56,865 nucleotides of DNA, from positions 1-56,865 of the IMG/VR virus record IMGVR_UViG_3300023489_000004. One strand, written 5' to 3'. The DNA is from a virus. Made by a program: the position numbers and the translations under genes. The notes beneath the pieces are model-generated. The model did no database searches. It was not told where the DNA came from and worked only from the letters and a program-made list of their open reading frames with translations. How positions within the stretch are numbered: position 1 is the stretch's first letter; each line of letters begins with the position of its first letter. Of the stretch, positions 13,693 to 47,220 are shown piece after piece.

Positions 13693-13698
13693 AGAAGG

Positions 13699-13798: not shown

Positions 13799-13803
13799 AT
13801 TAT

Positions 13804-13828: not shown

Positions 13829-13834
13829 AGAAGG

Positions 13835-31486: not shown

Positions 31487-34400
31487 TTGGACTTTTATCG
31501 TATACGGCAGACAATGATCAAAAATCAGGGCCTCAAGATATTTCCTGACTTTCGAATCGGAAGCTATAGGGATTTCATGGCTCGCGGACATTCGTTCTAT
31601 GCTGTCTGGGATCCTAATACTGGTTTGTGGTCTCAGAACGAATTGGATATTCAAAGGATTGTCGATGATGATCTAGATCGTCATTATGAGAAAGTTAAGG
31701 ATAAGTTCGAGACAGATATTTTTGTTGAGTACATGAGTTCGTACAAATCCAGTAGTTGGAAGAACTATACTCAATGGGTTAAGACTCTTCCGGATCAGTA
31801 TCATCCTCTTGATACGAAGTTGATATTCTCGAACCAAGAAGTTAAGCGAGAGGATTACGCTAGCAAGAAATTGCCATATCCTCTTGAGGCTGGAGACTAT
31901 AGCGCTTGGGACGAACTGATTGGTACTTTGTATGAACCTGCCGAGCGCGAGAAAATTGAATGGGCAATCGGATCGATCGTTGCCGGAGCAAGTAAGAGCA
32001 TCCAGAAGTTCTGTGTGTTTTATGGCGAAGCCGGAGCCGGCAAGTCAACTATCCTAGGAATCATTGAGGAACTGTTTGAAGGATATTGTGTCAACTTCGA
32101 TGCTAAGTCTCTTGGATCATCGAGGAATATGTTTGCCACGGAAGCATTTAAGTCAAATCCGTTAGTAGGCGTTCAGCACGATGGCGATCTTAGCAAGATT
32201 GAAGACAACACTCTGCTGAATTCGATCGTTTCTCATGAGAACATGTTGATGAATGAGAAGTATAAATCTAGTTATTCTTCTAAAGTTAACGCATTCTTAT
32301 TTATGGGAACGAACAAACCTGTAAAGATTACAGATGCTAAGTCTGGTATTATTCGAAGACTCATTGATATTTCGCCTAGCGGCAACAAAGTTCCAATCAA
32401 TCGATATTTCGAATTGATGAGTCAGATTCGATTCGAGCTTGGTGCGATCGCATATCATTGTCGAGATGTGTTCGAGAATCTCGGTAAGCATTATTATGAT
32501 GCATATCGTCCGGTTAGCATGATGTTCAAGACTGATGTGTTCTTTAACTTTGTTGAGGATTCATATTTGGTCTTTAGTCAGCAACCATGTGTTACCTTGA
32601 AGCAGGCTTATGATATTTACAAAGAGTATTGTCAAGAAGCTAATGTCGAATACAAGATGCCTAAGTATAAATTCAGGGAAGAGCTCAAGAATTATTTCGA
32701 GAACTACTCTGAAAGGGGTCGAGTTGACGACAAGCAAGTCTGGAACATATATTCTGGATTCTTGAAAGATAAGTTTGAACTTATCAAAAAGCTTGATGAC
32801 GGTGCCGGAGAAGAAGAGATTGAAGTAGCAGAGCCTACTAGAATGGCCCTAGAAGCCTCTGAGAGCCTATTTGATGGCATGTTTAAGGATTGTCCGGCTC
32901 AATATGCCTCTTCTAATGAAACACCCCTTGAAAAGTGGTCTGAGGTCTCCACAACCCTTAACGATATTGACACTCACCAGTTACATTATGTTAAGGTCCC
33001 GGAGAATCATATTGTTATTGATTTTGATTTGAAGAATTCAGATGGAGATAAGGACCAAGATTTAAATTTGGAAGCTGCTGCAAAATGGCCTCCGACTTAT
33101 GCAGAGTTTAGCAAAGGGGGTGCTGGAGTACATCTGCATTATATTTATGATGGAGATCCTAAGAAACTCAGTCGAGTATATTCTGAGGGTATTGAGATCA
33201 AAGTCTTTACTGGGAATAGTTCGTTGCGTAGACGTTTGAGCAAATGTAACGATCTTCCCATTGCCCATATTTCTAGTGGGCTTCCCTTGAAAGGAGAGAA
33301 AGTGATTAATTTCAAAGCTGTGAAAAGCGAGCGATCACTTCGAGAGCAAGTAACAAGGAATCTTAATAAGGAGATTCATCCCGGAACCAAACCGAGTGTC
33401 GACTTTATTTATAAGATTCTTGAAGATGCGTACAAGAGTGATCTTAAGTATGATCTTACTGACATGCGTCCGAAGGTTCTCGCATTCGCTAACAATAGCT
33501 CACACCAAGCGGATTATTGTGTTCGACTTGTAGCCAAGATGCATTTTAAGTCTGAGAATTATGAGAGCGATCCGTCTATTGATTATGACGATCAGAGAAT
33601 CGTATTCTTCGACGTTGAGGTATTTCCTAATCTGTTCCTGATTAACTGGAAGTATGCCGGAGAAGATACGACATGCGTTCGTATGATTAATCCTACGCCT
33701 TCTGAAGTCGAACAACTTATTAAGATGAAGTTAGTTGGCTTCAATTGTCGTAGGTATGATAATCATATTCTGTATGCTCGATATCTCGGTTACAGCAATC
33801 TCGAACTTTATAATCTGAGTCAGAAGATTGTTAACGGTAGTCGAAATGCTTTCTTTGGCGAAGCGTACAATATTTCGTATACTGACGTGTATGATTTTGC
33901 TTCCGCTGCTAATAAGATGAGTCTTAAGAAGTGGGAGATTAAGCTCGGAATTCATCACCAAGAGTTGGGTCTTCCTTGGGATCAGCCGGTTCCTGAAAGC
34001 AAATGGGTTCAGGTTGCAGAGTACTGTGACAATGATGTTATTTCTACTGAGGCAGTCTTCAATCATTTGAGTGGTGACTGGGCTGCACGACAAATTCTTT
34101 CCAAGATCTCCGGACTTAGTGTAAATGATACGACCAACCAGCATTCCACTAAGATTATCTTCGGGAATGATCGTCATCCTCAGGGCAAATTTGTATATAC
34201 TGATTTGTCTGAGATGTTCCCGGGATATACTTTCGATCACGGAAAGAGTTATTATCGTGATGAGCTAGTTGGCGAGGGCGGATACGTTTACGCCAATCCT
34301 GGAATGTATACAGATATTGCATTGCTCGATATTGCGTCCATGCATCCGAGTTCGATTGAAGCATTGAATCTGTTTGGTCCATATACTCAGAGGTTCAGTG

Positions 34401-35545
34401 ATATTAAGCAAGCACGTATTGATATTAAGCACAAGGACTATGAGTTGGCCAAGACCATTCTGGATGGAAAGCTTGCCCCATTTGTCGAAGAGCTTGAGTC
34501 TGGTACGGCATCATATACCAATAAGGATCTTGCTGCAGCATTGAAGACCGTTATTAATTCGGTTTATGGATTGACTTCTGCCAAGTTTGAGAATCCGTTT
34601 AAGGATCCTAGGAATGTTGATAATATTGTTGCTAAACGTGGCGCACTGTTTATGATTAATCTTAAGCATGAGTGTCTTGATCGCGGTTGGCCTGTTGTCC
34701 ATATTAAGACTGATAGTATCAAGCTAGCTAACGCTACTCCTGAGATGATTCAGTTTGTTGTCGATTATGGTAAGAAGTATGGGTATAATTTCGAGCATGA
34801 GGCTACTTATGATCGTATGTGTATTGTAAATAATTCGGTTTATATTGCACATTCGAAGTGGGGCGACCATGCTGGCGAATGGACCGCTACAGGAGCGCAA
34901 TTCGCTCAGCCGTATGTGTTTAAGACTTTGTTCTCTAAGGAACCGATCGAATTTAAGGATCTTTGTGAGACGAAGTCTACTACTTCGGCGCTATATTTGG
35001 ATATGAATGAGACTCTTCGAGATGTAAAGAAAGAAGAGGGAGAGTTAGCTAATCGAGTATTTAATGCAAAACTTGATTTGAGCGATCCGGAACAAAAGAA
35101 GAGACTTAAGCGTCTTAATTCAGAATTTGAAGGTATGTCTGATGATGAGCTGAAGCCGATTATTTCTGAGGGACACTCGTACAACTTCGTTGGTCGTGTT
35201 GGTTCATTCTGTCCTATCAAGAAAGATTGTGGTGGCGGTCTTCTTGTCAGAGAGAAAGATGGAAAGTATTACGCTGTAACCGGAACTACTGGATATCGTT
35301 GGTTGGAATCTGAGACAGTAGAGCTCATGAGTAAGCAAGACGATATCGATCTTGGCTATTATAATTCATTAGTTGATGATGCAATTAATGATATTTCGAA
35401 GTATGGCGATTTCGAATGGTTCGTATCCTTGGAGGATCCCAAGGAAATTGTTCCGCCTTGGTGTACTAAGCCAGAGCTCCGAGATCCTGATCTGAATCAG
35501 TGCGCTACTTGTTCTGAGAATTCTACTTGCGGATTGCTCAATTAG
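31487..35545 (+). CDS. Fused replicase: SF3 (P4/D5-type) helicase, AEP primase-polymerase and family-B DNA polymerase with 3'-5' exonuclease
   Basis: TTG start 5 nt after AAGGAGG. Walker A GEAGAGKST (aa 180-188). AEP motifs IVIDFD (aa 509-514) and GAGVHLHY (aa 545-552). Exonuclease motifs FFDVE, FNCRRYDNHIL and YCDNDV. PolB motifs LDIASMHPS, KTVINSVYG and IKTDS. Confidence 0.8.
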   Translation: MDFYRIRQTMIKNQGLKIFPDFRIGSYRDFMARGHSFYAVWDPNTGLWSQNELDIQRIVDDDLDRHYEKVKDKFETDIFVEYMSSYKSSSWKNYTQWVKTLPDQYHPLDTKLIFSNQEVKREDYASKKLPYPLEAGDYSAWDELIGTLYEPAEREKIEWAIGSIVAGASKSIQKFCVFYGEAGAGKSTILGIIEELFEGYCVNFDAKSLGSSRNMFATEAFKSNPLVGVQHDGDLSKIEDNTLLNSIVSHENMLMNEKYKSSYSSKVNAFLFMGTNKPVKITDAKSGIIRRLIDISPSGNKVPINRYFELMSQIRFELGAIAYHCRDVFENLGKHYYDAYRPVSMMFKTDVFFNFVEDSYLVFSQQPCVTLKQAYDIYKEYCQEANVEYKMPKYKFREELKNYFENYSERGRVDDKQVWNIYSGFLKDKFELIKKLDDGAGEEEIEVAEPTRMALEASESLFDGMFKDCPAQYASSNETPLEKWSEVSTTLNDIDTHQLHYVKVPENHIVIDFDLKNSDGDKDQDLNLEAAAKWPPTYAEFSKGGAGVHLHYIYDGDPKKLSRVYSEGIEIKVFTGNSSLRRRLSKCNDLPIAHISSGLPLKGEKVINFKAVKSERSLREQVTRNLNKEIHPGTKPSVDFIYKILEDAYKSDLKYDLTDMRPKVLAFANNSSHQADYCVRLVAKMHFKSENYESDPSIDYDDQRIVFFDVEVFPNLFLINWKYAGEDTTCVRMINPTPSEVEQLIKMKLVGFNCRRYDNHILYARYLGYSNLELYNLSQKIVNGSRNAFFGEAYNISYTDVYDFASAANKMSLKKWEIKLGIHHQELGLPWDQPVPESKWVQVAEYCDNDVISTEAVFNHLSGDWAARQILSKISGLSVNDTTNQHSTKIIFGNDRHPQGKFVYTDLSEMFPGYTFDHGKSYYRDELVGEGGYVYANPGMYTDIALLDIASMHPSSIEALNLFGPYTQRFSDIKQARIDIKHKDYELAKTILDGKLAPFVEELESGTASYTNKDLAAALKTVINSVYGLTSAKFENPFKDPRNVDNIVAKRGALFMINLKHECLDRGWPVVHIKTDSIKLANATPEMIQFVVDYGKKYGYNFEHEATYDRMCIVNNSVYIAHSKWGDHAGEWTATGAQFAQPYVFKTLFSKEPIEFKDLCETKSTTSALYLDMNETLRDVKKEEGELANRVFNAKLDLSDPEQKKRLKRLNSEFEGMSDDELKPIISEGHSYNFVGRVGSFCPIKKDCGGGLLVREKDGKYYAVTGTTGYRWLESETVELMSKQDDIDLGYYNSLVDDAINDISKYGDFEWFVSLEDPKEIVPPWCTKPELRDPDLNQCATCSENSTCGLLN

Positions 35546-35773: not shown

Positions 35774-36253
35774 ATGAACAATCAGAATCGAGTTACTAAT
35801 AACATCTCTATCGAGAACGCGCATATTATGTGGCGTAACTTTGCCGGAAAGCCTTCTCAGTATAATGCTCAGGGTAAGCGTAATTTCTGTGTTCAGCTTG
35901 ATGAGGATCTTGCGCATGAGCTTGAGCGTGACGGTTGGGCAGTTAAGTGGCGCGAGCCTCGTGATCCTCAGGATACTCCGTTTGCGTATTTGCAGGTGTC
36001 TGTGAGCTTCGATGTTATTCCGCCTAACATTTATACCGTCACTTCTCGTAATAAGACTCGACTTACTTCTGAGACTGTTGATATTCTCGATTGGGCTGAT
36101 ATCTCTAACGTCGATCTTATCATTCGTCCTTACAATTGGGAGGTTAACGGCAAGCATGGCGTAAAGGCTTATGTCAAGGCCATGTATGTCACTCTCGATG
36201 AGGACGAGTTTGCCGATAAGTATTCTGATCTTTACGACAGTAATGAGGATTAA
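35774..36253 (+). CDS. Putative ssDNA-binding protein (phage SSB-like)
   Basis: Position in the replication module, an acidic DEDEF..YSDLYDSNED tail and a beta-rich core. The assignment is tentative. Confidence 0.4.
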   Translation: MNNQNRVTNNISIENAHIMWRNFAGKPSQYNAQGKRNFCVQLDEDLAHELERDGWAVKWREPRDPQDTPFAYLQVSVSFDVIPPNIYTVTSRNKTRLTSETVDILDWADISNVDLIIRPYNWEVNGKHGVKAYVKAMYVTLDEDEFADKYSDLYDSNED

Positions 36254-37454
36254 TCTATATCCTCATCAAAGAAAAGCGATAAACGAACTGAGGCCTGGCT
36301 CCATCCTTTGCGGTGGGGTCGGGTCCGGTAAGTCCAGAACTGCCATAGCCTATTATTTTTGCCAAGAGTGTGGTGGTAACATATCTTCTGATGGTGAGTT
36401 ATCGTCGATGACAAAACCAAAGGATTTATATATTATCACCACGGCTCGTAAACGAGATACTTTGGAGTGGGAGGATGAATGCTTACCTTTTTTGATAGGC
36501 AAGAAGGATTCTCCATATTCCATGAACTTCGTTGTGGATAGTTGGAACAATGTAAAAAAGTATCAAGATGTAAAAGATGCTTTCTTTATATTCGACGAAC
36601 AGAGAGTGGTTGGTAGCGGTACTTGGGTAAAAGCTTTTCTTAAAATCGCTAAGAATAATCATTGGATTTTACTTTCTGCTACTCCTGGAGACACTTGGTC
36701 TGATTATATCCCAGTGTTTGTGGCAAATGGCTTTTATAAGAATCGAACAGATTTTCTTCGTCAGCACGCAGTCTTTAATCGTTTTACGAAGTATCCTAAG
36801 ATCGATAGATATGTAGATTGTCGAAGGCTTGAAAAGCATAGAGATTCTATAACTGTCGAGATGCCTTTTAAGAAACATACTGTTAGACATATGATCGATG
36901 TGTTTGTCCCTTATGATGAAAATCTATATTCTGTCATAAGTAAAGATCGATGGAATCCGTTTGAAGATCGCCCAATAAAAGATATCAGTGAAGTTTGTTA
37001 TTCTATGCGCAAAGCAGTGAATTCCGATTCAGCTAGAATCGAACAAGTCATATCTTTGTTGGCGAAGAATCCAAAAGCTATTATTTTTTATAACTTTGAT
37101 TACGAATTAGACATGCTTCGAACTATGTGCTTCGAGAATCATATTTCTTGGGGTGAATGGAATGGGCACAATCACCAATCGATTCCAGAAGGAGACCGTT
37201 GGGTATATTTGGTTCAATACACAGCCGGTGCGGAAGGATGGAATTGTATAAAGACCAATGTTGTTATTTTCTATTCGTTGAATTATTCTTATAAAATCAT
37301 GGAACAAGCTTCTGGTCGAATAGATCGAATGAATACTCCATATTTTGATTTGTACTACTATCGTCTTCGATCAAGATCTAGCATTGACTCGGCGATATTC
37401 AAGACATTGATGAATAAGAAAACATTCAACGAAAAGAAATTTCTTGGCGTATGA
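36243..37454 (+). CDS. SF2 (SNF2/DEAD-like) helicase
   Basis: LYPHQRKAI, GGVGSGKS (motif I), FIFDEQ (motif II), SATPG (motif III), QASGRIDR (motif VI). Start uncertain (the track begins at 36171). Confidence 0.7.
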   Translation: MRINLYPHQRKAINELRPGSILCGGVGSGKSRTAIAYYFCQECGGNISSDGELSSMTKPKDLYIITTARKRDTLEWEDECLPFLIGKKDSPYSMNFVVDSWNNVKKYQDVKDAFFIFDEQRVVGSGTWVKAFLKIAKNNHWILLSATPGDTWSDYIPVFVANGFYKNRTDFLRQHAVFNRFTKYPKIDRYVDCRRLEKHRDSITVEMPFKKHTVRHMIDVFVPYDENLYSVISKDRWNPFEDRPIKDISEVCYSMRKAVNSDSARIEQVISLLAKNPKAIIFYNFDYELDMLRTMCFENHISWGEWNGHNHQSIPEGDRWVYLVQYTAGAEGWNCIKTNVVIFYSLNYSYKIMEQASGRIDRMNTPYFDLYYYRLRSRSSIDSAIFKTLMNKKTFNEKKFLGV

Positions 37455-37457: not shown

Positions 37458-37482
37458 TCGCGTAAAAATAACATGCTATAAT
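37458..37482 (+). promoter_or_regulatory. Early-type promoter motif followed by a short hairpin/T-tract leader (37483-37530)
   Basis: CTCGCGTAAAAATAACATGCTATAAT followed by AGAAGGAG, as in P1-P3. Confidence 0.5.
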
Positions 37483-37544
37483 AGAAGGAGTAGAATACGC
37501 CTAGGGGCTAAATCTGCTCCTTTTATTTTTCTGAAAGGTTTTTT

Positions 37545-37838
37545 ATGCCAAAAGAAAATTCCTTTCAAGCACAACTCATAAAAGATTTGAAGATACTGTT
37601 TCCTGGGTGCATGGTTTTAAAGAATGATGCAAACTATATTCAAGGGATTCCGGATCTTCTTATTTTGTTTAATGATCGATGGGCAATGCTTGAATGTAAA
37701 CGAACCGAAAAAGCATCGCATAGACCTAATCAGGAATATTATGTTGACCTTCTAGGAAAGATGTCTTATGCGGCATTCATATACCCTGAGAATAGAGAGG
37801 ATATTTTGAATGAACTTCAACAAGCATTACGATCTTGA
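37545..37838 (+). CDS. VRR-NUC-like PD-(D/E)xK nuclease
   Basis: GIPDLLILFNDRWAMLECK...NQEYY. Confidence 0.6.
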   Translation: MPKENSFQAQLIKDLKILFPGCMVLKNDANYIQGIPDLLILFNDRWAMLECKRTEKASHRPNQEYYVDLLGKMSYAAFIYPENREDILNELQQALRS

Positions 37839-38367
37839 GGGTAAACATGCTTTTCTTAGTGCAAGTCAGCACGCTTGGGTTAACTATGATGAAGGCAAGT
37901 TGATTCGAGTATATTCTAATTTGCTGGCTGCAGCTCGAGGAACTAAACTTCATGAGTTTGCTTGTGAAGCTATTAAGTTGGGAGTTCGACTTCCAGATAA
38001 TAAGCAAACTATTAACATGTATGTTAACGATGCTATTGGTTATAAGATGACTCCCGAGTTGGTTCTTAAGTATTCCAATAATGCTTTTGGAACGGCTGAT
38101 GCTCTTTCTTTCAAGAAGGATCTTTTAAGGATTCATGATTTGAAAACTGGTAGATCAAAAGTTTCTATGGTTCAGTTGGAGATCTATGCGGCTCTATTCT
38201 GTCTAGAGTATGACGTAAAGCCAAATGATATTCAGATGGAGTTGCGGATTTATCAATCAAATGAAGTTCTGGTACACAATCCAGATCCTGATGATATTTT
38301 CCACATCGAAGACAAGATTATTTTGTTCGATCAGCGCATTGAAGAACTCAAGCAAGAGGAGGAATAA
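37810..38367 (+). CDS. PD-(D/E)XK (Cas4/RecB-like) exonuclease family protein
   Basis: HAFLSASQHAW N-terminus, GTADAL and IHDLKTG, QLEIYA. Confidence 0.5.
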   Translation: MNFNKHYDLEGKHAFLSASQHAWVNYDEGKLIRVYSNLLAAARGTKLHEFACEAIKLGVRLPDNKQTINMYVNDAIGYKMTPELVLKYSNNAFGTADALSFKKDLLRIHDLKTGRSKVSMVQLEIYAALFCLEYDVKPNDIQMELRIYQSNEVLVHNPDPDDIFHIEDKIILFDQRIEELKQEEE

Positions 38368-41066
38368 TGAACGATGACGAATTAATGCATTATGGTACTC
38401 CTCGACATTCTGGTCGATATCCTTGGGGTAGTGGCGAGAATCCATATCAATCATCCACTGGTCTTTATGGGATGGCCAAACAGCTAAAAAGCCAAGGCAT
38501 GTCTGATAAAGAAATTGCTGAGTCATTCGGCATGAGTACTCGAGAGTATAAATCAGCATATTCTAATGCAAAGAATGAAGTTCGTGCAGCAAATCGTGCT
38601 GAGGCTCTTAGGCTAAAGGATAAGGGATATTCTAACACCGCTATTGGTAAACGAATGGGCGTTAACGAATCTACTGTTCGCAGCTGGATGGATGAGGATA
38701 TTGCTGAGCGATCAAGTATTTCTAAAAACACAGCAAAAGCTTTAAAGAGCGCTGTAGATGATAAGAAATATATTGACATTGGCGGTGGCGTTGAGAATCA
38801 AATGGGTATTTCTCGTACCGCTCTCGATAATGCCGTTAAGATGCTGAAAGATGAGGGTTATACCGTTCATTATATTCAGACAGAACAACTTGGAACTGGT
38901 CATAAGACCTCCATCAAGGTTCTAGCTCCTCCCGATACTACATATTCTGAAGTATGGAACCATAAAGCCGATATTGAGTTTCCTGGATTTCATTCTGAAG
39001 ATAAAGGCCGAACCATTGATAAAATCGGAAAGCCTGTTAGTATTTCCTCTAAACGCATAAAAATTAATTATGCTGAAGAAGGAGGAAAAGACAAAGATGG
39101 TGTTATCGAACTTCGTCGAGGCGTAGATGATATTTCTTTGGGTAAAGCCAAGTATGCTCAGGTTCGAATCGCTGTAGATGGTACCCATTATTTAAAGGGC
39201 ATGGCAATGTATCGTGATGATATGCCAGATGGTGTTGACATTATATTTAACACTAACAAGGCAAAAGGTACTCCCATGCTTGGCGAAAAGGATAATTCAG
39301 TCCTAAAGCCTATGAAGAAAGATCAGGATAATCCTTTCGGAGCAACTATCAAAGGTGAACGAGAGCTTATTCTTGCTCAGCGATATTATACCGACAAGAA
39401 CGGAAAGCGTCAGCAATCGGCAATTAATATTGTAAACGAGGAAGGCGATTGGAATACCTGGCGAAAGAGCTTATCTTCGCAGATGTTATCTAAGCAAAGT
39501 CCTATGCTGGCTAAGAAGCAATTAAAACTCGCTTATGATCTTAAGCAGGATGAGTTTGATAGTATTATGAAACTCGAGAATCCTGTTATTCGCCAGCAAC
39601 TTCTTGATAAATTCGCAGATGGATGCGATTCGGCATCAGTTCATCTCAAGGCCGCTGGTCTTCCTCGTCAAGCATCAAAGGTTATTCTTCCATTTCCTTC
39701 GATGAAAGAAAACGAAGTTTATGCTCCATCATTTCGTGATGGTGAAGAAGTCGTATTAATTCGATATCCTCATGGCGGAACGTTTGAGATCCCTCGCCTT
39801 AAGGTAAACAACAAAGTTCCAGACGCTAAGAAGACACTTCATAATGCTCAAGATGCAATTGGTATTAACGCCAAAGTGGCTGAGCGATTATCTGGAGCAG
39901 ACTTTGATGGCGATACTGTTCTTGTTATTCCTACAAGCACTGCTAAAATTAAAACTTCTAAGCCTTTGGATGGGTTAAAAGACTTCGACCCTCAACGAGA
40001 CTATAAAGCATATCCTGGTATGCCTGAAGTAAAGGGTTCTGGTTTTAATAAACAGCAACAGATGGGCAATGTTTCAAATCTTATTACAGACATGACCATC
40101 AAAGGTGCTACGCCTGATGAATTGGCTCGTGCTGTTCGCCATTCTATGGTTATTATCGATGCTGAGAAACATAATCTTAATTATAAACAATCGGCTATTG
40201 ATAACAATATTGCTGAGTTGAAAAAGAAATATCAAGGCGGAAGCAATCGCGGAGCTTCTACGATTATTTCTAGAGCCAGTGCTACAGCATATGTTCCGGT
40301 TCGTAAGGAAATAACGAACACGAAATATATGACTGACGATGAGAAGAAGCGATATTCTAAAGGCGAAAAGATATATCGCGAAACTGGTGAAACTTATATT
40401 TCTAAGAAGACTGGAAAAGAAGTCAAACGTATTTCTAAATCCACAAAAATGGCCGAGACTTCTGATGCGAATACTTTATCTTCAGGATATTTAATCGAGA
40501 CCGTATATTCTGAACATGCCAATAAATTAAAGGCCCTAGCAAATAAAGCTCGAGCCGAATCTAGGTCTACTGATTATATTCCATATTCAAAAGAAGCGCA
40601 TGTAAAATATAAAGATCAAGTAGACTCTTTGAATTCTAAGCTAAATATAGCATTGAAGAATAGGCCCCTTGAGCGTAAGGCCCAGCTTATAGCTAATGCT
40701 AAGGTTAAGAATGTATATGCGGCCAATCCAGACATGGATTCGGATGATCTAAAGAAGCTTAAAGGTAGGTGCTTAACAGAGGCCCGCTTACAGACGGGTG
40801 CTTCTAAGCAACAGATTAAGATAGAGCCTAAAGAATGGGAAGCTATTCAGGCTGGTGCTATCTCTACCAATAAGCTTAAGTCTATTGTACAGAACTCAGA
40901 CCTTGATGTACTAAAGCAGTTAGCTATGCCTCGTGAGATGCGTGGTGTAACACCAGCACAAGAGTCAAGGATCAAGGTTCTTGAGAGTCGTGGATACACT
41001 CTTGCTGAGATAGCTGATGCTGTTGGTGTGTCTACTGGTACTATTACCAATGTACTGCAAGGATAG
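38367..41066 (+). CDS. Single-subunit two-barrel RNA polymerase (YonO/RdRP-like) with terminal HTH modules
   Basis: Beta-like barrel motif GTHYLKGMAMYRDDMPDGVDIIFN (aa 272-295). Beta'-like barrel VVLIRYPHGGTFEI...AERLSGADFDGDTVLVIP (aa 462-522). HTH-like segments at aa 44-65, 86-108 and 875-899. Confidence 0.75.
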   Translation: MNDDELMHYGTPRHSGRYPWGSGENPYQSSTGLYGMAKQLKSQGMSDKEIAESFGMSTREYKSAYSNAKNEVRAANRAEALRLKDKGYSNTAIGKRMGVNESTVRSWMDEDIAERSSISKNTAKALKSAVDDKKYIDIGGGVENQMGISRTALDNAVKMLKDEGYTVHYIQTEQLGTGHKTSIKVLAPPDTTYSEVWNHKADIEFPGFHSEDKGRTIDKIGKPVSISSKRIKINYAEEGGKDKDGVIELRRGVDDISLGKAKYAQVRIAVDGTHYLKGMAMYRDDMPDGVDIIFNTNKAKGTPMLGEKDNSVLKPMKKDQDNPFGATIKGERELILAQRYYTDKNGKRQQSAINIVNEEGDWNTWRKSLSSQMLSKQSPMLAKKQLKLAYDLKQDEFDSIMKLENPVIRQQLLDKFADGCDSASVHLKAAGLPRQASKVILPFPSMKENEVYAPSFRDGEEVVLIRYPHGGTFEIPRLKVNNKVPDAKKTLHNAQDAIGINAKVAERLSGADFDGDTVLVIPTSTAKIKTSKPLDGLKDFDPQRDYKAYPGMPEVKGSGFNKQQQMGNVSNLITDMTIKGATPDELARAVRHSMVIIDAEKHNLNYKQSAIDNNIAELKKKYQGGSNRGASTIISRASATAYVPVRKEITNTKYMTDDEKKRYSKGEKIYRETGETYISKKTGKEVKRISKSTKMAETSDANTLSSGYLIETVYSEHANKLKALANKARAESRSTDYIPYSKEAHVKYKDQVDSLNSKLNIALKNRPLERKAQLIANAKVKNVYAANPDMDSDDLKKLKGRCLTEARLQTGASKQQIKIEPKEWEAIQAGAISTNKLKSIVQNSDLDVLKQLAMPREMRGVTPAQESRIKVLESRGYTLAEIADAVGVSTGTITNVLQG

Positions 41067-41079: not shown

Positions 41080-41319
41080 ATGGTGATGCTTACTACTGTT
41101 GACAATCCTTTTGATCCTATCACACAGTTCGATGATTGGTATGAGTATGATGAGTCGAAAGGCTATTGTACTTCTGGTTATGTGGCTCGAATAGCTAAGA
41201 CTAGTGATGATCTATCAAAGAATGATCAAGACCTAGCCATCCAGGCGGCTATCGATGAGATTATTAGTATGAATCCTGATGGTTTTTATAAAAAAGTGAC
41301 GGATTCTACACAAAAATAA
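41080..41319 (+). CDS. Hypothetical conserved phage protein
   Basis: ATG 6 nt after GAAAGGAG; NPFDPITQFDDWYEYD. Confidence 0.55.
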   Translation: MVMLTTVDNPFDPITQFDDWYEYDESKGYCTSGYVARIAKTSDDLSKNDQDLAIQAAIDEIISMNPDGFYKKVTDSTQK

Positions 41320-41340: not shown

Positions 41341-41378
41341 GGGGAGGGAGGGGTCTCTCGCGAAACTACCCCCTCCCC
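41341..41378 (+). other. GC-rich hairpin with TCGCGA in the loop
   Basis: GGGGAGGGAGGGG pairs with CCCCCTCCCC; the loop is TCTCTCGCGAAACTA. Followed by a polypyrimidine tract. Confidence 0.5.
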
Positions 41379-41442
41379 ACATCGCCGGCCTCTTTCTCTC
41401 TTCTCCAGCGGGATTTTTTCTGAAAACTATCGGAGGTTATTC

Positions 41443-43133: not shown

Positions 43134-43536
43134 AACTTACTCGGAACTTATCGAGATTCCATCCTTTAAAGAACGCTACGAGTATCTAAGACTCGATGGC
43201 AAAGTTGGAGAGGATACTTTTGGTTGAAGTCGATACTTAAACCAAGCACTGTATACCTCGGATGAATGGAAACGAATACGACGTCAGGTAATACTTCGTG
43301 ATAACGGATGCGATTTGGCTGTAGCTGGTTTTGAAATTCAAAATAGGCTTTTGATTCATCACATCAATCCGATAACCGCTGAAGACATAGAAACTGGTTC
43401 TCCACTAATCTTCGATTTAAACAATCTTATTTGTTGTTCACTTAATACTCACGAAGCCATTCATTATGGGAATGTAAATCTACTTCCGTCCGATCCAGTT
43501 ATACGCAGACCGAATGATACTTGTTTATGGAGGTGA
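43123..43536 (+). CDS. Terminase-associated HNH endonuclease, interrupted by in-frame TGA (43225-43227)
   Basis: MSIRTYSELIEIPSFKERYEYLRLDGKVGEDTFG, then the stop, then SRYLNQALYTSDEWKRIRRQVILRDNGCDLAVAGFEI..LLIHHINPIT...H in one frame. The track sees only 43315..43536. Confidence 0.6.
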
Positions 43537-43542
43537 TTCTGT

Positions 43543-45288
43543 ATGAGTCTTTCTAATTCAGCTACTCCAATTTATTACGGCAAATTTCGTGACGCTGTAA
43601 TTCGAGGAGAGATTCCTGTTTGTCGAGAGATCTCTATGCAGATGAACCGAATCGACAACATGATCCGAGATCCTGGTTTGTATTATGATGACAAAGCCAT
43701 TAATGGTTTCGTACATTTTTGCGAGAATGAGCTAACTCTTACCGACGGTAGTGATCTTAAGTTACTAGACACTTTTAAACTTTGGGCAGAAGATGCACTC
43801 AGTTGGTTTTATTTCGTAGATCGAACTGTTTATCAACCTAGTCCTGATAACCATGGCGGGGTTTATGTAAAGAAGCGAATAAAGAAGCGTCTTGTTAACA
43901 AGCAGTATTTGATCGTTTCTCGTGGTTCGGCCAAGTCAATGTATGCAGCTTGTATGCAAGCGTATTATCTGACAGTTGATACTTCAACTACTCAGCAGAT
44001 AGTAATGGCTCCAATCCTTACTCAGACTGAAGAGACACTTAGTCCTATTCGAACAGCTATCACTCGAGCTAAAGGTCCATTATTTCAGTTTCTAACTGAT
44101 GGTAATCTAGCTAATACCGCTGGAAGTTTGGCAGATCGCAAGAAACTCTCATCTACCAAGAAGGGTATTGAGAATTTCTTAACGAACTCGATCATTGAAG
44201 CTCGAGCCATGGGAATTGACAAAGTACAAGGAGCTAAGCCAAAATTCTCATCAGTTGACGAATGGCTTTCATGCGACATTCGAGAAGACGTCATCGGTGC
44301 TTTGGAACAGGGTGCTACTAAGAATGACGATTACTTGATTCTTGCCATCTCTTCTGAGGGTACAGTTCGTAACGGTGCCGGCGATACAATCAAAATGGAA
44401 TTAATGGACATACTCAAAGGCGAGTATGTGAACCCGCATGTGTCCATTTGGTATTATAAACTTGACAGTATTGAAGAAGTTGCTGATCCTTCTATGTGGA
44501 TGAAGGCGGCTCCTAATATTGGTAAGACTGTTTCTTATGAGACTTATCAGCTTGCTGTTGAGCGTGCTGAGAAGGCTCCCTCTACTCGAAACGATATTCT
44601 TGCTAAGCGTTTCGGCATTCCCATGGAAGGCTACACATATTTCTTCACTTACGAAGAGACTCTACCTCATAAGCCACGAAATTTCTGGCAGATGCAATGT
44701 TCTATGGGAGCGGATCTTTCTCAGGGCGATGACTTCTGTGCGTTTACATTCCTATTCCCTCTTCCTCGAGAAAAATACGGAATTAAGACTCGGTGCTACA
44801 TTTCTTCCGACACAATGGCGAAACTTACTCCTGCAACAAGGATCAAGTACGAAGACTTCTTACGAGAAGGTTCTTTGATGGTACTCGATTGTGTTGCTCT
44901 GGATATGAATGAAGTTTACAATGATCTAGATCAGTATATTGCTGATAACGAATACGATGTTACCTCTTTCGGTTACGATCCGTATAACGCAAAGGAATTT
45001 GTCAACCGATGGGCTACCGAGAACGGTCCGTTTGGTATCGAGAAAGTAATTCAAGGTGTTAAGACGGAGTCGGTTCCTCTTGGCGAGTTGAAGAAACTTG
45101 CTGAGAATCGAGCTTTGCTATTCGATGAATCTTTGATGGAATTCTGTATGGGTAACGCAATTGCTTTGGAGGATACTAACGGTAATCGCAAGCTGTATAA
45201 GAAGCGCCATCAAGATAAGATCGACTCGGTAGCAGCAATGCTTGACGCCTATGTAGCATTTAAGCTTAATCGAGATTCTTTTGAATAG
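43543..45288 (+). CDS. Terminase large subunit
   Basis: Terminase_1-like organisation, 581 aa; position before the portal gene. Confidence 0.85.
   Translation: MSLSNSATPIYYGKFRDAVIRGEIPVCREISMQMNRIDNMIRDPGLYYDDKAINGFVHFCENELTLTDGSDLKLLDTFKLWAEDALSWFYFVDRTVYQPSPDNHGGVYVKKRIKKRLVNKQYLIVSRGSAKSMYAACMQAYYLTVDTSTTQQIVMAPILTQTEETLSPIRTAITRAKGPLFQFLTDGNLANTAGSLADRKKLSSTKKGIENFLTNSIIEARAMGIDKVQGAKPKFSSVDEWLSCDIREDVIGALEQGATKNDDYLILAISSEGTVRNGAGDTIKMELMDILKGEYVNPHVSIWYYKLDSIEEVADPSMWMKAAPNIGKTVSYETYQLAVERAEKAPSTRNDILAKRFGIPMEGYTYFFTYEETLPHKPRNFWQMQCSMGADLSQGDDFCAFTFLFPLPREKYGIKTRCYISSDTMAKLTPATRIKYEDFLREGSLMVLDCVALDMNEVYNDLDQYIADNEYDVTSFGYDPYNAKEFVNRWATENGPFGIEKVIQGVKTESVPLGELKKLAENRALLFDESLMEFCMGNAIALEDTNGNRKLYKKRHQDKIDSVAAMLDAYVAFKLNRDSFE
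44389..44403 (+). promoter_or_regulatory. Late-region motif copy (ATCAAAATGGAATTA)
   Basis: Exact 10-mer core inside TerL. Confidence 0.3.
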
Positions 45289-45305: not shown

Positions 45306-46421
45306 ATGTACGAATATCCAGACTACCTTATGCGCTACGGTGTCCTAGGAATGAAATGGGGCGTACGTAGATATCAAAATAAAGATGGTGCATATACGCC
45401 AAAGGGTCATAGACGATATTTTAATGGTTCAAATAAAGTAAAAACTTCTCATAAAGATAAATTAATTGCCAAGTATAAAGAAAAAGGGTATAGCAATAAA
45501 GCAGCGGAATTAGCTGCTCAAAAGCGGATTCGTAATGAACGAATAATGATTGCTGCTGGAGCGATAACTTTAACGGCAGCAGTTGCTTACTTGGCTACTA
45601 GAGATAATTTTGATCGTGCTGATCGAATTATTAAAGAAGGAGCCAAATTAGGCCGAATCGAAAATAACGATTCAGGAAAGCTATATGACGGTTTTTACGC
45701 GTTTAATAATAAGCGTGACGCTGTTCGATATAAAGGCTTTTATGGAAATCAAGTAGCCTCTACTGGGGCAAAAACATATCTTATGGATCTTACGACTACT
45801 GGTAGTATTAAAATTCCATCACGTGATAACGCTAAAAAGGCCCTTAGTGAATTGATTAAAGAAGATCCGACATATGCTCGTAATTTGAAGAGTATGTTAA
45901 ATTCGAATTTCGGAGTTGATCATAGAGATAGACTCGCTCGTAAAGCACTTAGGGATCTTTCAAAAGGAAAAGTTACAGATGCAGTCTATGATGCAGTTAA
46001 TACTGATTTAACTTTTAAGGGCGATATTCCGAATTATCAAAAAACGAAATATTATGAGAAATTAGCCTCCAAGGGATATAACGCTATTAGGGATATTCAT
46101 GATGTCAAGTATAGCGGATACAAATCTCAAGATCCGTTAATTGTCTTTGATAAATCAAAGGTTATGGTGAATAAAATATCCCAGATGTCCGCTTCTGAAC
46201 TAATTTCGAATAATTACGAAGCGATCGGTCAGAACGCATTAGAATATACGCGAGATTACACTTTGAAGGCTTTAATAGCCGGAGGAGCTGCAACTACTGG
46301 ACTTACTGCCGGAGCACAATCAGTAAAAACAGTAGGTGAGAAGAATTTCTTACGATCTTATAAGAAAGCTCATCCAGAAACAAAGAAGACCGATTATCAA
46401 ATTTTGAAAATGTATAAGTGA
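45306..46421 (+). CDS. Head-module protein with N-terminal YLMxYGxxGMKWGxR motif (371 aa, TM segments)
   Basis: N-terminus MYEYPDYLMRYGVLGMKWGVRRYQNKDG; hydrophobic IMIAAGAITLTAAVAYLA. Confidence 0.6.
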   Translation: MYEYPDYLMRYGVLGMKWGVRRYQNKDGAYTPKGHRRYFNGSNKVKTSHKDKLIAKYKEKGYSNKAAELAAQKRIRNERIMIAAGAITLTAAVAYLATRDNFDRADRIIKEGAKLGRIENNDSGKLYDGFYAFNNKRDAVRYKGFYGNQVASTGAKTYLMDLTTTGSIKIPSRDNAKKALSELIKEDPTYARNLKSMLNSNFGVDHRDRLARKALRDLSKGKVTDAVYDAVNTDLTFKGDIPNYQKTKYYEKLASKGYNAIRDIHDVKYSGYKSQDPLIVFDKSKVMVNKISQMSASELISNNYEAIGQNALEYTRDYTLKALIAGGAATTGLTAGAQSVKTVGEKNFLRSYKKAHPETKKTDYQILKMYK

Positions 46422-46430
46422 GGTGATTTG

Positions 46431-46820
46431 ATGGATCAATATTCAAACTATCTTATGCATTACGGCATTCCTGGAATGAAATGGGGAGTTCGTAAAAAAC
46501 GAAATTCTGTTGGAAAGAAAACAACGAGACGAAAGAAACGTCAAGATTCGTATTCCAAGGATTACTTGGATTCAAAGGCTTTGCGGTCTAAGAGCTATAA
46601 GCAATTGTCAACTTCCGAAATGAAAGAGTTAAACAAACGACTAGAAGCGGAATCACAATATCGTAGATTAAACCCAAAGGGGTTTGATAAAGGTATGGCA
46701 ATAGCGAAAAAAGCCATTGCTATTGGTGGAACCGCTGCTGGCGTATACGCATTAAGCAAAAACCCTTGGGTTCCCGTTGGCGAGGACTTGATAAAACATG
46801 TTGGAAGGTATTTGGTGTAA
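46431..46820 (+). CDS. Head-module protein with the same N-terminal motif (129 aa)
   Basis: MDQYSNYLMHYGIPGMKWGVRKKRN. Confidence 0.6.
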   Translation: MDQYSNYLMHYGIPGMKWGVRKKRNSVGKKTTRRKKRQDSYSKDYLDSKALRSKSYKQLSTSEMKELNKRLEAESQYRRLNPKGFDKGMAIAKKAIAIGGTAAGVYALSKNPWVPVGEDLIKHVGRYLV

Positions 46821-46821
46821 C

Positions 46822-47220
46822 ATGAATTATAAAGATGATTATTTAGCTCACTATGAAGTTCTCGGTATGAAATGGGGACAACGTCGAGTTCGAGTTAATC
46901 AAGAAAAAGCTAGACGAGCTAAGGCGTTGGGTAACAAAGAAGCGTACTCCAAGTATTCTGCCAAGGCTAATCGAATAAAGCAGAAGCACATTCGATTGTC
47001 TGGAGGTAAGAAGGCCTACGATTATACCAAAAATGAGAGTCTTGGCAAGTCGTTGGTTAAGTCTGTTTTGCTTACTACGTATGGTACCATGAAGTATAAC
47101 GAGTTTCGATCTAACGGTGAAAGTCAAATGAAATCCGGAGTTAAAGCCGTAGCGTATGGATTCGCTAACAATTTAACTAGCGGCATCGTGTCGATTGCCG
47201 AACCTAGGCTTCGAAAATAG
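46822..47220 (+). CDS. Head-module protein with the same N-terminal motif (132 aa)
   Basis: MNYKDDYLAHYEVLGMKWGQRRVR. Confidence 0.6.
   Translation: MNYKDDYLAHYEVLGMKWGQRRVRVNQEKARRAKALGNKEAYSKYSAKANRIKQKHIRLSGGKKAYDYTKNESLGKSLVKSVLLTTYGTMKYNEFRSNGESQMKSGVKAVAYGFANNLTSGIVSIAEPRLRK

Follow-up and report, generated by a model that had tools for sequence, protein, structure and literature searches.

Neurospora QDE-1 and plant RDR2 (eukaryotic cellular RdRPs, Pfam PF05183) are single-chain polymerases of RNA silencing, use RNA or single-stranded DNA templates and carry a beta-like barrel N-terminal to a DxDGD barrel; helix-turn-helix (HTH) modules are absent. YonO of the Bacillus prophage SPbeta is also a single-chain two-barrel enzyme, encoded just upstream of late and packaging genes, with a DNDGD metal loop, four invariant C-terminal cysteines (CxxC pairs C799/C802 and C816/C819) and no HTH. 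To our knowledge, it is the only biochemically characterised bacterial-phage relative of the clade whose regulon is known. It transcribes the late genes of SPbeta as a single operon, and the start site is just downstream of yonO (PMC5467207). Thermus siphoviruses encode the single-subunit two-barrel enzymes P23-45 gp64 and P74-26 gp62 (both non-virion) and gp96 (tape-measure-fused, virion). Early genes are read by such enzymes from phage-specific motifs, and one enzyme is delivered fused to a virion protein (PMC10770324). Unlike the polymerase described here, the Thermus phage enzymes lack HTH modules; they are of another sequence family and have other promoters. Gp66 of phi14:2 (a crAss-like phage), a multidomain protein of roughly 2,180 aa, is also DNA-dependent. 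Both gp66 and the vRNAP of coliphage N4 are virion RNA polymerases, which the capsid carries, which leave it on ejection and which serve early genes; the N4 enzyme is of the T7-like right-hand type, and its fold is unrelated to that of the polymerase described here.

The closest described proteins form PHROG 4291, with ORF75 of Lactococcus phage 1706, a 'putative RNA polymerase' of Faecalibacterium phage FP_oengus and HTH proteins of actinophage clusters AM, AU, AW, BI, CC, DJ and EL. The phage 1706 branch was assigned to the YonO-like two-barrel polymerases in 2010 (PMC2919709). An RdRP-like protein with HTH at both ends and DxDGD was described from an actinophage/Firmicutes phage supercluster in 2021 (bioRxiv 10.1101/842583). 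The present polymerase is a member of this family, the phage 1706/actinophage branch, which is already known and not new; the preliminary description had called the lineage poorly explored, a view that the two reports do not bear out. RefSeq and PHROGs name the family RNA-dependent RNA polymerase; most of the annotations among the phage-record matches listed, and most SEA-PHAGES records, have the name 'helix-turn-helix DNA-binding domain protein'. New here are the promoter-like motif, the phage 1706 'structural protein' deposit, the portal fusion lineage and the DUF7211-like N-terminal peptide.

The window is the whole stretch of viral DNA analysed, 56,865 nucleotides in length. The polymerase gene occupies 38367..41066 (+ strand), starts with ATG and encodes 899 aa; it is defined by the ORF list and by a full-length match to phrog_4291 (E = 0, 1245 bits). 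The first barrel (beta-like, DPBB-B; 39057..39251, + strand, aa 231-295) has five predicted strands in the AlphaFold model and includes GTHYLKGMAMYRDDMPDGVDIIFN (aa 272-295, nt 39180-39251). Residues G245, R250, Q265, R267, K277, G278, P287 and G289 are invariant in it among 77 family representatives. The second barrel (beta'-like, DPBB-A; 39672..39932, + strand, aa 436-522) includes VVLIRYPHGGTFEI (aa 462-475) and GINAKVAERLSGADFDGDTVLVIP (aa 499-522), with RYPHGG at aa 466-471 (R466-Y-P468-H469) and ADFDGD at aa 511-516 (nt 39897-39914), within which the metal loop D512-F-D514-G-D516 takes nt 39900-39914. Motif positions and ORF coordinates given earlier were all confirmed. The filter pattern [RK]xP-x(20-100)-DxDxD is present with a spacing of 43 residues. 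The metal loop is DFDGD and the protein has two cysteines only, unlike YonO. A conserved helical segment follows the catalytic barrel (40050..40235, + strand, aa 562-623; model helices H562-578 and H583-602), with M566, G567, N571, L572, D575, M594, D598, K601, H602 and L604 invariant and a GxxSNxIT motif that aligns with YonO; by position alone, it may be a bridge-helix-like region.

Residues R466, P468, H469, G510, A511, D512, D514, G515, D516, R267, K277 and G278 are invariant across the 77 diverse representatives. Strict invariance of the aspartates, R-x-P and barrel residues at about 50% identity indicates selection on catalysis. A single active centre is made up of the beta-like barrel, with R267 and K277, and the beta'-like barrel, with R466-x-P468 and D512-x-D514-G-D516. 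On motifs and model, the gene product is an RNA polymerase in one chain, within the two-double-psi-beta-barrel superfamily, and RNA synthesis is predicted.

The AlphaFold model (pLDDT 84.1, pTM 0.72) matches QDE-1 (E 1.3e-10, probability 1.0), maize RDR2 (E 9e-7, probability 1.0), Arabidopsis RDR2 and Thermus phage P74-26 gp62 (8f5m, E 1.8e-6) in Foldseek searches of the PDB, and P23-45 gp64 (A7XX94, E 1.3e-5) in BFVD. QDE-1 and plant RDR2 are the best structural matches, yet share 11-14% sequence identity. Multisubunit beta' is matched weakly (E 6e-3 to 3e-2), and phi14:2 gp66 is not among the top Foldseek matches. The polymerase falls in the clade that unites eukaryotic-type RdRPs (QDE-1, RDR2) with single-subunit two-barrel enzymes of phages. 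The earlier proposal of two double-psi beta-barrels in one HTH-flanked chain of RdRP/YonO-like lineage is borne out; for YonO itself, it holds for the single-chain two-barrel plan and in-register motifs and not for sequence or profile similarity. Neither BLASTP nor hhalign gives a significant score against YonO or a profile of 33 YonO sequences, and membership of the YonO family proper was rejected by sequence. RxPH, DxDGD and GxxSNxIT of the two proteins align in register despite the non-significant score, with R466/P468/H469 and D512/D514/D516 opposite YonO R492/P494/H495 and D535/D537/D539. The parallels drawn with cellular beta and beta' stand at the level of motif windows (E. coli beta' z 3.6, beta z 2.2) and not for whole proteins, for which comparisons with E. 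coli beta and beta' are not significant.

Full-length homologues with 39-54% identity occur in 250 phage records, and the HTH-free core matches 1729 cluster representatives at E <= 1e-3. Identity of the window polymerase reaches at most 54% with cultured-phage proteins and 63% with IMG/VR or GTDB loci. Together with the phrog_4291 match and the invariant residues, this pattern is beyond chance. PHROG 4291 relatives share the N-terminal peptide, HTH at both ends, two barrels, DFDGD, the promoter-like motif upstream, and the series of VRR-NUC, Cas4-like exonuclease, polymerase, small ORF and cos. The family is present in lytic phages and in chromosomal loci; relatives inside large bacterial chromosomes are probably prophages.

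Two to three modules of HTH or winged-helix type flank the core at its N-terminal end, and a single HTH does so at the C-terminal end. Two N-terminal HTH modules lie at 38463..38690 (+ strand; Pfam matches HTH_23, Sigma70_r4_2 and HTH_28; model helices H33-42, H47-53, H58-85, H90-97 and H101-108). The module at aa 73-108 is robust, sigma-70 region 4/HTH_23-like, and passes Pfam when scanned alone (HTH_23, 36.5 bits); the one at aa 33-70 has a weak sigma70_r4_2 match (E 0.0026). The C-terminal module (40953..41060, + strand, aa 863-898; H863-874, H879-886 and H890-898) matches HTH_38, Sigma70_r4 and HTH_3, with HTH_38 at 42 bits in the whole protein and 25.9 bits alone. Of three HTH-like segments in the preliminary description (aa 44-65, 86-108 and 875-899), the second and third are upheld by Pfam, as aa 73-108 and aa 863-898, and the first, as aa 33-70, is weak in sequence and a three-helix unit in the model. 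A winged-helix-like unit at the start of the conserved core (38769..38936, + strand, aa 135-190; E135-137, H142-146, H150-162, E166-173 and E180-187 in the AlphaFold model) was missing from that list. It has weak ParB-HTH and YjcQ matches, gives no Pfam match when scanned alone, and is kept in portal-fused relatives. The HTH modules may confer sigma-independent promoter recognition.

Upstream operon partners are a VRR-NUC-type ORF (37545-37838, + strand, from the ORF list) and a Cas4-like exonuclease (37810-38367, + strand, DUF2800 match). The order VRR-NUC, Cas4-like, polymerase is the same in Circum, 1706, FP_oengus, HotFries and ReqiPepy6. Directly 3' of the polymerase gene lies a small ORF of 79 aa (41080..41319, + strand; phrog_4303, E 7.7e-33), with counterparts in Circum (gp99), 1706 (orf76), FP_oengus (AUV56549), HotFries (gp57) and ReqiPepy6 (gp107); conserved and always in this place, it is possibly an accessory factor. 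A probable cos region follows at 41341..41391 (+ strand), as a GC-rich hairpin GGGGAGGGAGGGGT...ACCCCCTCCCC with loop TCTCGCGAAA, then CATCGCCGGCCT; the DNA fold is -13.8 kcal/mol (z -2.6). The loop contains TCGCGAAA, as does the promoter-like motif. The same element stands at the right end of Circum, 1706, HotFries and about 10 metagenomic loci; the linear genome of the relatives ends at it, and the ReqiPepy6 record annotates a 3' cos overhang. The Circum genome has 9-base 3' ends (PMC5513430). On the circular map, the packaging and head module comes directly after the polymerase gene.

A promoter-like motif of roughly 30 bp, TCGCR-N14-TATAAT-AGAAG, is present in 11 copies on the + strand of the window (13103, 13553, 13668, 13804, 15235, 22969, 24086, 24883, 25420, 27658 and 37458). 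The last copy, TCGCGTAAAAATAACATGCTATAATAGAAGGAG (37458..37490, + strand), lies upstream of the operon of VRR-NUC, Cas4-like exonuclease and polymerase. Copies score 32-42 bits, all remaining window sites 17 or less. All are in the early/replication region; the window scan detected none in the late region, nor any on the - strand. About 100 related loci keep the motif upstream of the polymerase gene, at GC contents of 0.31 to 0.56. Hits number 36 on the + strand vs 1 on the - strand in the first 84 loci, and 71 vs 1 in the 80 genome loci; the distance to the gene is about 0.9-1.05 kb for most of the 36 and in 62 of the 80. Several copies each are present in the Arthrobacter phage Circum (9), in HotFries of Streptomyces (6) and in the Lactococcus phage 1706 (about 10). 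No -35 hexamer is found at motif sites. The '-10' is TTTTAT in a large Lachnospiraceae clade, with CGCGAAAAAAACAT kept, and always TATAGT in phage 1706; neither suits sigma-A well. All 11 window copies and all 9 Circum copies have a perfect sigma-70-type TATAAT, and T-tracts lie upstream of several copies, so that recognition by host sigma-A is plausible. PHROG searches of the larger early ORFs revealed no sigma factor or regulator. The motif is a candidate cognate promoter of the polymerase.

The N-terminal peptide ELMHYGTPRHSGRYPWGSGENPYQ (38379..38450, + strand, aa 5-28) is predicted disordered (pLDDT below 50 for aa 1-30), with H8, G10, S15, G16, R17, G21 and G23 invariant in the 77 representatives; its motif is present in 74 of the 80 genome loci. 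Between TerL and portal, three proteins of the head module (45306..47220, + strand) carry an N-terminal DUF7211 (Pfam PF23847; L-x-H-Y-G-x-x-G-M-K-W-G; E 5.8e-8, 3.9e-12 and 6.9e-8), vs one or two such proteins in most relatives. Their homologues in the phage database are confined to the same supercluster. The N-terminal motif said to be common to these proteins and the polymerase is secure as DUF7211 on the three; the polymerase N-terminus matches the model weakly and not significantly (E 0.11). Co-variation of the two motifs, in 7 of 15 loci, is unconvincing. The peptide is a candidate capsid or portal docking signal. Phage 1706 orf75, the polymerase homologue, was deposited as 'structural protein' (EU081845.1, depositors' annotation), a label repeated in the ReqiPepy6 record; 1706 orf7, the DUF7211-like counterpart, is likewise annotated structural protein. 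In representative P0181, from one metagenomic contig, the portal protein is fused to the polymerase core, and the gene for the fusion lies between those for TerL and prohead protease; P0216 is encoded directly 3' of the portal gene. The portal-fused lineage lacks HTH modules and the N-terminal peptide. A putative virion link would lie in the peptide here and in portal fusion in one lineage, vs tape-measure fusion in Thermus phages. The evidence suggests that the virus particle contains the polymerase and that the enzyme transcribes from conserved promoters of its own.

The main rival reading, less likely than not, is that the enzyme is instead a YonO-like late-gene polymerase outside the virion, with host sigma-A reading the 11 TATAAT-type promoters, that of the polymerase operon included. 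Its target would be a late operon of roughly 28 kb (HNH, TerS, TerL, portal, capsid, tail) that, with the cos ends joined, starts just downstream of the polymerase gene. The YonO precedent, the position beside the packaging/head module, the perfect TATAAT and the motif-free late region are consistent with this. So are the prophage-like chromosomal relatives: an induced prophage lacks any enzyme brought in by a virion and so must rely on the host for some expression. However, no candidate late promoter was found, the best being a weak TCTACA-16-TATATT at 41305; neither the TCGCR/CGCGAAAAAAACAT element nor the variants TTTTAT and TATAGT resemble sigma-A promoters, the polymerase is outside the YonO family by sequence, and the 1706 annotation and portal-fused lineage also argue against it. 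An improbable variant is dual, positive-feedback use, in which the host fires the motif weakly or reads through and the phage polymerase takes over via its HTH modules, T7-like, virion association being incidental or absent. It accords with a sigma-like -10 joined to a conserved non-sigma upstream element, with the motif before the polymerase operon, and with occurrence in both lytic phages and chromosomal loci, but has no direct evidence and leaves the invariant peptide, structural-protein annotation and portal fusion unexplained.

It is very unlikely that the protein is no transcriptase but a true RNA-dependent RNA polymerase, or an enzyme that makes primers for replication or recombination. 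The closest solved folds are RdRPs, and the gene ends the replication/recombination module beside the two nucleases; QDE-1 accepts both DNA and RNA templates (PMC9508822). Against this, the phage has a dsDNA genome and no RNA template is known for it, a 1352-aa primase-polymerase is already among its gene products, and four DNA-binding modules lie around the polymerase core; the Pfam RdRP model is below threshold (16.5 vs 23.8 bits), and all characterised bacterial-phage relatives (YonO, P23-45 gp64 and gp96) are DNA-dependent (PMC5467207; PMC10770324). There is equally little probability that catalysis is irrelevant and the protein DNA-binding or structural, e.g. cos-binding or a capsid protein protecting DNA ends. 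The common HTH-protein name, HTH modules resembling those of terminase small subunits (PF06056, PF10668), and a gene abutting cos with its promoter-like hairpin loop point that way; the strictly invariant aspartates, R-x-P and barrel residues argue against it.

A virion-delivered, sigma-independent early polymerase is the favoured explanation and has about an even chance of being correct. The polymerase gene itself is behind the same promoter type, and the gene order is similar to the late-gene arrangement of YonO; both observations speak against early delivery from the virion. There is a precedent in two-barrel polymerases of phages, which transcribe early genes from phage-specific motifs and leave late genes to the host enzyme (PMC10770324). 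If the virion reading is true, phi14:2 gp66, N4 vRNAP and P23-45 gp96 are functional analogues. The virion-delivered polymerase would dock in the capsid via its invariant, disordered, DUF7211-like N-terminal peptide and transcribe the double-stranded DNA of the phage with no need of a sigma factor. Its HTH modules would recognise TCGCR-N14-TATAAT-AGAAG before 11 early/replication transcription units, its own operon included. The motif-free late genes would fall to the host enzyme or depend on a promoter still to be recognised. Packaged in the capsid and ejected with the DNA, the polymerase would start the early programme independently of host promoter specificity.

The polymerase gene lies at nt 38367..41066 on the + strand, starts with ATG and encodes a single chain of 899 aa. 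Translation of the ORF confirms, at residue and nucleotide level, every motif quoted in the preliminary description: the beta-like motif GTHYLKGMAMYRDDMPDGVDIIFN at aa 272-295 (nt 39180-39251), VVLIRYPHGGTFEI at aa 462-475, GINAKVAERLSGADFDGDTVLVIP at aa 499-522 and ADFDGD at nt 39897-39914. The DxDxD metal-binding loop of the beta'-like barrel is present as D512-F-D514-G-D516 (nt 39900-39914); D512, D514, D516 and G515 are invariant in 77 family representatives. R466-Y-P468 lies 43 residues ahead of D512, both residues invariant, and has the form and spacing of the published filter, [RK]-x-P 20-100 residues upstream of DxDxD (equivalents of Rpb1 R446/P448; PMC10770324 supplement). Also invariant in the alignment with 76 representatives are H469, G510, A511, R250, Q265, R267, K277 and G278 and, past the catalytic barrel, a block of M566, G567, N571, L572, D575, M594, D598, K601 and H602. 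The candidate beta-like barrel is a five-strand unit at aa 231-295, with R250, R267 and K277 invariant and D244 nearly so. Its Smith-Waterman alignment with E. coli beta is weak (z 2.2, 42/1000 shuffles), the signal being confined to the motif windows; alignment with E. coli beta' (z 3.6, 6/1000 shuffles) is likewise significant in the motif windows only. Above-threshold Pfam families are HTH only. HTH_23 covers aa 73-108 and HTH_38 aa 867-898, sigma-70 region 4 models match as well, and the HTH modules proposed at both termini are thereby borne out. The catalytic centre is intact, under strong selection and fused to DNA-binding modules.

The AlphaFold2 model, built from the 76-representative alignment, has a mean pLDDT of 84.1 and a pTM of 0.72; pLDDT is below 50 only in aa 1-30 and two loops. 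Foldseek matches in the PDB are Neurospora QDE-1 (E 1.3e-10, probability 1.0), Thielavia QDE-1 (E 6.8e-9), maize RDR2 (E 9e-7), Thermus phage P74-26 gp62 (E 1.8e-6), Arabidopsis RDR2 (E 1.3e-4) and multisubunit beta' / Rpb1 chains (E 6e-3 to 3e-2). Matches in BFVD are other phage 'RdRP' proteins (E 3e-9) and P23-45 gp64 (E 1.3e-5). Probability is 1.0 against QDE-1, RDR2 and P74-26 gp62; TM-scores against solved two-barrel polymerases are only ~0.3 because of the domain arrangement. The expected structural similarity to double-psi beta-barrel polymerases is found, and matches to solved two-barrel enzymes therefore support the two-barrel assignment. Fold matches and invariant catalytic residues both uphold the proposal that one chain carries both barrels. 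The modelled fold is that of a two-barrel RNA polymerase, and RNA synthesis is predicted. Solved polymerases are out of reach for sequence methods alone. Searches of PDB sequences with phmmer and the 77-sequence profile return HTH proteins only, and the P23-45 tape-measure polymerase (8h2n) is not significant there (E 0.39).

The chain had also been placed in the lineage of YonO and eukaryotic-type RdRP. By fold it is a YonO/QDE-1-type enzyme, and on the model it is predicted to work like YonO or a QDE-1-type enzyme; by sequence and profile it is not a YonO-family member. The best BLASTP E between YonO itself (SPBc2 61356-63875) and the polymerase is 0.47. The hhalign probability of the family profile is 1.2% against YonO and 1.8% (E 0.028) against a 33-sequence YonO profile. 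Neither the single-sequence nor the profile comparison is significant, and YonO-family membership is therefore rejected. RxPH, DxDGD and GxxSNxIT are nevertheless in register in the profile-profile alignment. In YonO, which has no HTH, four cysteines near the C-terminus form two invariant CxxC pairs (C799, C802, C816, C819); the window polymerase has just two cysteines (C420, C802), and its C-terminus is an HTH. Pfam RdRP PF05183 is sub-threshold (16.5 vs 23.8 bits, E 0.0036) and limited to aa 503-605.

The phrog_4291 profile, 'RNA-dependent RNA polymerase', is matched over its full length (E = 0, 1244.7 bits, residues 2-898 on profile 8-906 of 909). Full-length homologues with 39-54% identity are present in 250 phage records (tblastn), from phages of Arthrobacter, Gordonia, Streptomyces, Curtobacterium, Microbacterium, Rhodococcus and Bifidobacterium, Lactococcus 1706-like phages and Faecalibacterium FP_oengus. 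Their annotations vary: 'helix-turn-helix DNA-binding domain protein', 'RNA-dependent RNA polymerase', 'putative RNA polymerase' or hypothetical. The HTH-free core matches 1729 representatives of 50%-identity clusters at E <= 1e-3 and 806 at E <= 1e-30 (exhaustive HMMER). Near-identical copies occur on many metagenomic contigs of 55-60 kb, some labelled 'sigma-24 family protein' by JGI. Most public records use one of the names DNA-binding, sigma-24-family or RNA-dependent RNA polymerase, which capture the family only in part or may be wrong. Ruminococcus torques ATCC 27756 carries a homologue (locus L134), and the family may be 'Cyano_RUMTOR_01356' of the in-house profiles of Chaban et al.

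YonO-like proteins were earlier divided into five distant families, one typified by phage 1706, and argued from eight invariant residues to be nucleotide polymerases (Ruprich-Robert and Thuriaux 2010, PMC2919709). Exactly the present family was described as the signature of an actinophage/Lactococcus/Faecalibacterium supercluster, with PF05183 by HHpred (95.7%), HTH at both ends and a DxDGD loop; it 'could potentially have RNA polymerase activity' (Koert et al. 2021, 10.1101/842583). The reading as a poorly explored lineage is correct in identity, but the family was already described in silico in 2010 and 2021; the interpretation is therefore right but not new. The polymerase is an added member of a known, in-silico-described family, and its identification is unsurprising to specialists. 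The literature searched yielded nothing on biochemical work on the family, its virion proteomics, DUF7211 or GMKWG.

The window is a circularly permuted siphovirus genome, 41% GC, with all genes on the + strand. Tail/tape-measure genes (to ~11 kb) are followed by early small ORFs, the replication module, the polymerase, and packaging and head genes. The replication module includes a 1352-aa primase-polymerase (31487-35545), a single-strand annealing protein, a probable helicase (36171-37454) and a VRR-NUC-type ORF followed by a DUF2800 / Cas4-like exonuclease. Immediately after the polymerase is a 79-aa ORF (41080-41319; phrog_4303, no Pfam family), always next in relatives, which could encode an accessory factor. 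An HNH gene and a 110-aa ORF (phrog_4259, possibly TerS) also follow the polymerase. The packaging and head genes include TerL (43543-45288), the portal (47233-48507) and a protease-capsid fusion (48581-50407). On the circular map the polymerase gene is 2.5 kb upstream of TerL, with the probable cos site between; this closeness is one of the indirect pointers to a virion protein. The probable cos element (41341-41391) is a GC-rich hairpin with a TCTCGCGAAA loop, then CATCGCCGGCCT. Relatives keep it at the nucleotide level, and their linear genomes have it as the right end, with a 9-base 3' cos overhang. Another conserved element, of type TTTTCCCCGGAGGGATTT, is at 41392-41442 on the left-end side. 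The order VRR-NUC / Cas4-like exonuclease / polymerase / small ORF / cos is common to the window, Circum, 1706, FP_oengus, HotFries and ReqiPepy6.

Three further features of the window were observed. The 409-nt gap before TerL (43134-43542) has no listed ORF >= 80 aa; by eye it has HNH-endonuclease-like coding (...RRQVILRDNGCDL...HHINPIT...) and may be a short or decayed HNH gene. The gene of a 1422-aa tail protein contains Ala-rich imperfect repeats (4890-6980). Tandem repeats of 183 nt span the window ends (55550-56865 and 1-100), consistent with a circularly permuted contig whose cut falls in a tail gene with repeats.

A promoter-like motif is new in this analysis. Repeat finding in the window exposed a 25-33-nt element, [T/A]CGC[G/A]-N9-ACA-N3-TATAAT-[A/G][A/G]; with pattern search, copies are placed at 13103, 13553, 13668, 13804, 15235, 22969, 24086, 24883, 25420, 27658 and 37458. 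All 11 are on the + strand in the early/replication region (13.1-37.5 kb), and they can be summarised as the ~30-bp consensus TCGCR-N14-TATAAT-AGAAG. Their weight-matrix scores are 32-42 bits, those of all other window sites <= 17, and the matrix finds none in the late region. The 37458 copy stands shortly before the operon of the VRR-NUC, exonuclease and polymerase genes. From TCGC to TATAAT the motif spans 15 nt, too short a distance for a sigma-70 -35 hexamer to fit. TCGCRAA is found both in the motif and in the cos hairpin loop.

The matrix gives 36 + strand matches vs 1 on the - strand in 84 related loci (80 from IMG/VR, 4 phage-record stretches; locus GC 0.31-0.56), most of them 0.9-1.0 kb ahead of the start of the polymerase gene. 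In 80 loci of GTDB genomes there are 71 + vs 1 - matches; 62 loci are positive, nearly always 0.91-1.05 kb upstream. Hosts of motif-bearing related loci belong to several phyla. Where 10 kb is available on each side of the gene, the motif is upstream and absent from the downstream late genes, with two exceptions (L106, L139). Circum (45% GC) has 9 copies, in the early region and upstream of the operon; HotFries (61% GC) has six variants of the form TCGCA-N14-T[A/G]T[A/G][A/G][T/C]-GAGACCCCTAC; phage 1706 has ~10 copies of the form ...GTTTTACA-N5-TATAGT-AGAAAGAAGG. In a large Lachnospiraceae clade the '-10' is TTTTAT, lacking the A at position 2, and CGCGAAAAAAACAT is kept. Conservation across loci thus marks the motif as a family-wide regulatory signal travelling with the polymerase. 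Two readings are open to it: a promoter for sigma-A to which a further conserved element has been added, or a promoter cognate to the HTH-bearing polymerase. PHROG searches of the larger early ORFs turned up neither a sigma factor nor a regulator; many small ORFs are unannotated. The search for a separate late promoter downstream of the polymerase gene gave only a weak sigma-70-like site at 41305, with no conserved motif besides the cos elements.

Right after TATAAT of the 37458 promoter, conserved AGAAGGAG pairs with a downstream CTCCTT, and a T-run is next (37483-37531). The hairpin is terminator-like (DNA fold -8.9 kcal/mol, z -2.4) and its 5' arm overlaps the likely start site; incoming upstream transcripts could stop there, and promoter-initiated ones would escape. 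T-runs likewise precede the phage 1706 promoters and, in the window, the ones at 13668 and 13804. Three tandem motif copies at 13553-13900, 115 and 136 nt apart, would drive units of ~85-130 nt, each ending in a T-run and holding at most a tiny ORF. These units may encode small RNAs or leader peptides.

New in this analysis, too, is a case for the polymerase as a possible virion protein. Across the family an invariant N-terminal peptide, [D/E][D/E]-x-L-x-H-Y-G-[T/V]-x-R-x-S-G-R-Y-P-W-G-S-G, is predicted disordered and is always close to the N-terminus. Its DNA (38376-38455) is 86-87% identical to that of Arthrobacter phages (e.g. NC_041948.1 55388-55463); whole proteins are only ~52% identical. 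The preliminary description saw an N-terminal motif common to the polymerase and three head-module proteins. This holds in part: the first half of the peptide matches the DUF7211 motif L-x-H-Y-G-x-x-G-M-K-W-G, but the polymerase's own Pfam DUF7211 match is weak (E 0.11). Carriers of the DUF7211 motif are three window proteins between TerL and portal (45306-46421, 46428-46820 and 46798-47220, + strand), Circum gp7 and gp9, HotFries gp5 and 1706 orf7. Besides the DUF7211 peptide at the N-terminus, the three window proteins have a basic stretch and, at the C-terminal side, hydrophobic segments; they may be ejection proteins. One related locus (L009) encodes as many as six DUF7211-type proteins, and homologues in the phage database are confined to the polymerase-bearing supercluster. 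Co-variation of the variable residue of L-x-H-Y-G between the polymerase and DUF7211 proteins of the same phage was also tested; the residue matched at 7 of 15 loci, alanine is common in DUF7211, and the signal is unconvincing. In HotFries (L086 40562-40664) the annotated start of the homologue, 40664, removes the conserved peptide, which starts near 40574. The start of the polymerase gene may be mis-called in several SEA-PHAGES records.

Depositors of phage 1706 labelled both orf75, the polymerase homologue, and orf7 'structural protein' (EU081845.1). RefSeq later renamed orf75; in the ReqiPepy6 record the homologue again bears the label 'structural protein'. On one metagenomic contig an in-frame fusion links the core to the portal. 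P0181, a family cluster representative of 1789 aa (L170:1866-7235), joins a portal domain (PF04860, E 2.9e-29) through a conserved linker of ~650 aa to the polymerase core, which corresponds to window aa 109-845 only and so is without the N-terminal peptide and terminal HTH modules. The gene stands between a TerL-like gene and prohead protease/capsid genes. A second representative, P0216 (L171:229-5658), has the same linker and core in an ORF immediately after the portal gene. This lineage is 69-71% GC, with the core inside the head module and both HTH modules and peptide absent. A scan of IMG/VR found no relatives of the P0181 linker.

An even chance is given to a scheme of three steps. The N-terminal peptide would package the polymerase in the capsid, the enzyme would be ejected together with the DNA, and it would start sigma-free transcription of the early and replication units at the conserved motif. 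In phi14:2 and N4 a polymerase is packaged, ejected and used for early genes. The virion polymerase of P23-45 is a precedent that acts like the proposed scheme (PMC10770324). The structural-protein label and the portal fusion hint at an enzyme travelling in the capsid. This virion evidence is indirect, which favours the main rival, a YonO-like scheme in which the host would read the TATAAT promoters and the phage enzyme the late operon. The -10 hexamer of the window phage is a perfect TATAAT, the polymerase gene itself is behind the same motif, and the family is also found in chromosomal, probably prophage, loci; all three points speak for the YonO-like scheme, which is nonetheless judged rather unlikely. 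Three alternatives are minor: positive feedback in which the same promoters are used, an enzyme that truly copies RNA or makes primers, and a DNA-binding protein with no catalytic role.

The packaging scheme may extend to the family as a whole, a view held tentatively and at less than even probability. With it, siphoviruses infecting Gram-positive bacteria would possess a widespread class of virion RNA polymerases that has so far gone unrecognised. The N-terminal peptide would dock the enzyme in the capsid for ejection with the DNA, and the sigma-region-4-like HTH would read the ~30-bp motif. The peptide would be common, in its variant form DUF7211, to other ejected head proteins, and one lineage would dock by portal fusion. 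The reach of the family is ~250 cultured phages and at least 1,700 sequence clusters.

Single-chain two-barrel polymerases are minimal relatives of the universal transcription enzyme. To our knowledge few have been studied so far (YonO, QDE-1, phi14:2 gp66 and the P23-45 enzymes), and for YonO we know of no established promoter or specificity factor. The present family offers DNA-recognition modules fused to a catalytic core, a candidate cognate promoter readable straight from genomes, and hundreds of cultured, easily grown SEA-PHAGES members. Candidate promoter, structural-protein annotation and portal fusion together amount to a specific case, open to experiment, for a new class of virion polymerase in many culturable phages. 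If the hints are false, the gene is still correctly identified as an already catalogued member of a known family. If they are true, the family would let promoter recognition without sigma be studied in a simple two-barrel enzyme system, and it would add a new route of polymerase delivery into the host cell. Transcriptional self-sufficiency would then explain a supercluster across Actinobacteria and Firmicutes, and genomes far lower in GC than those of their hosts.
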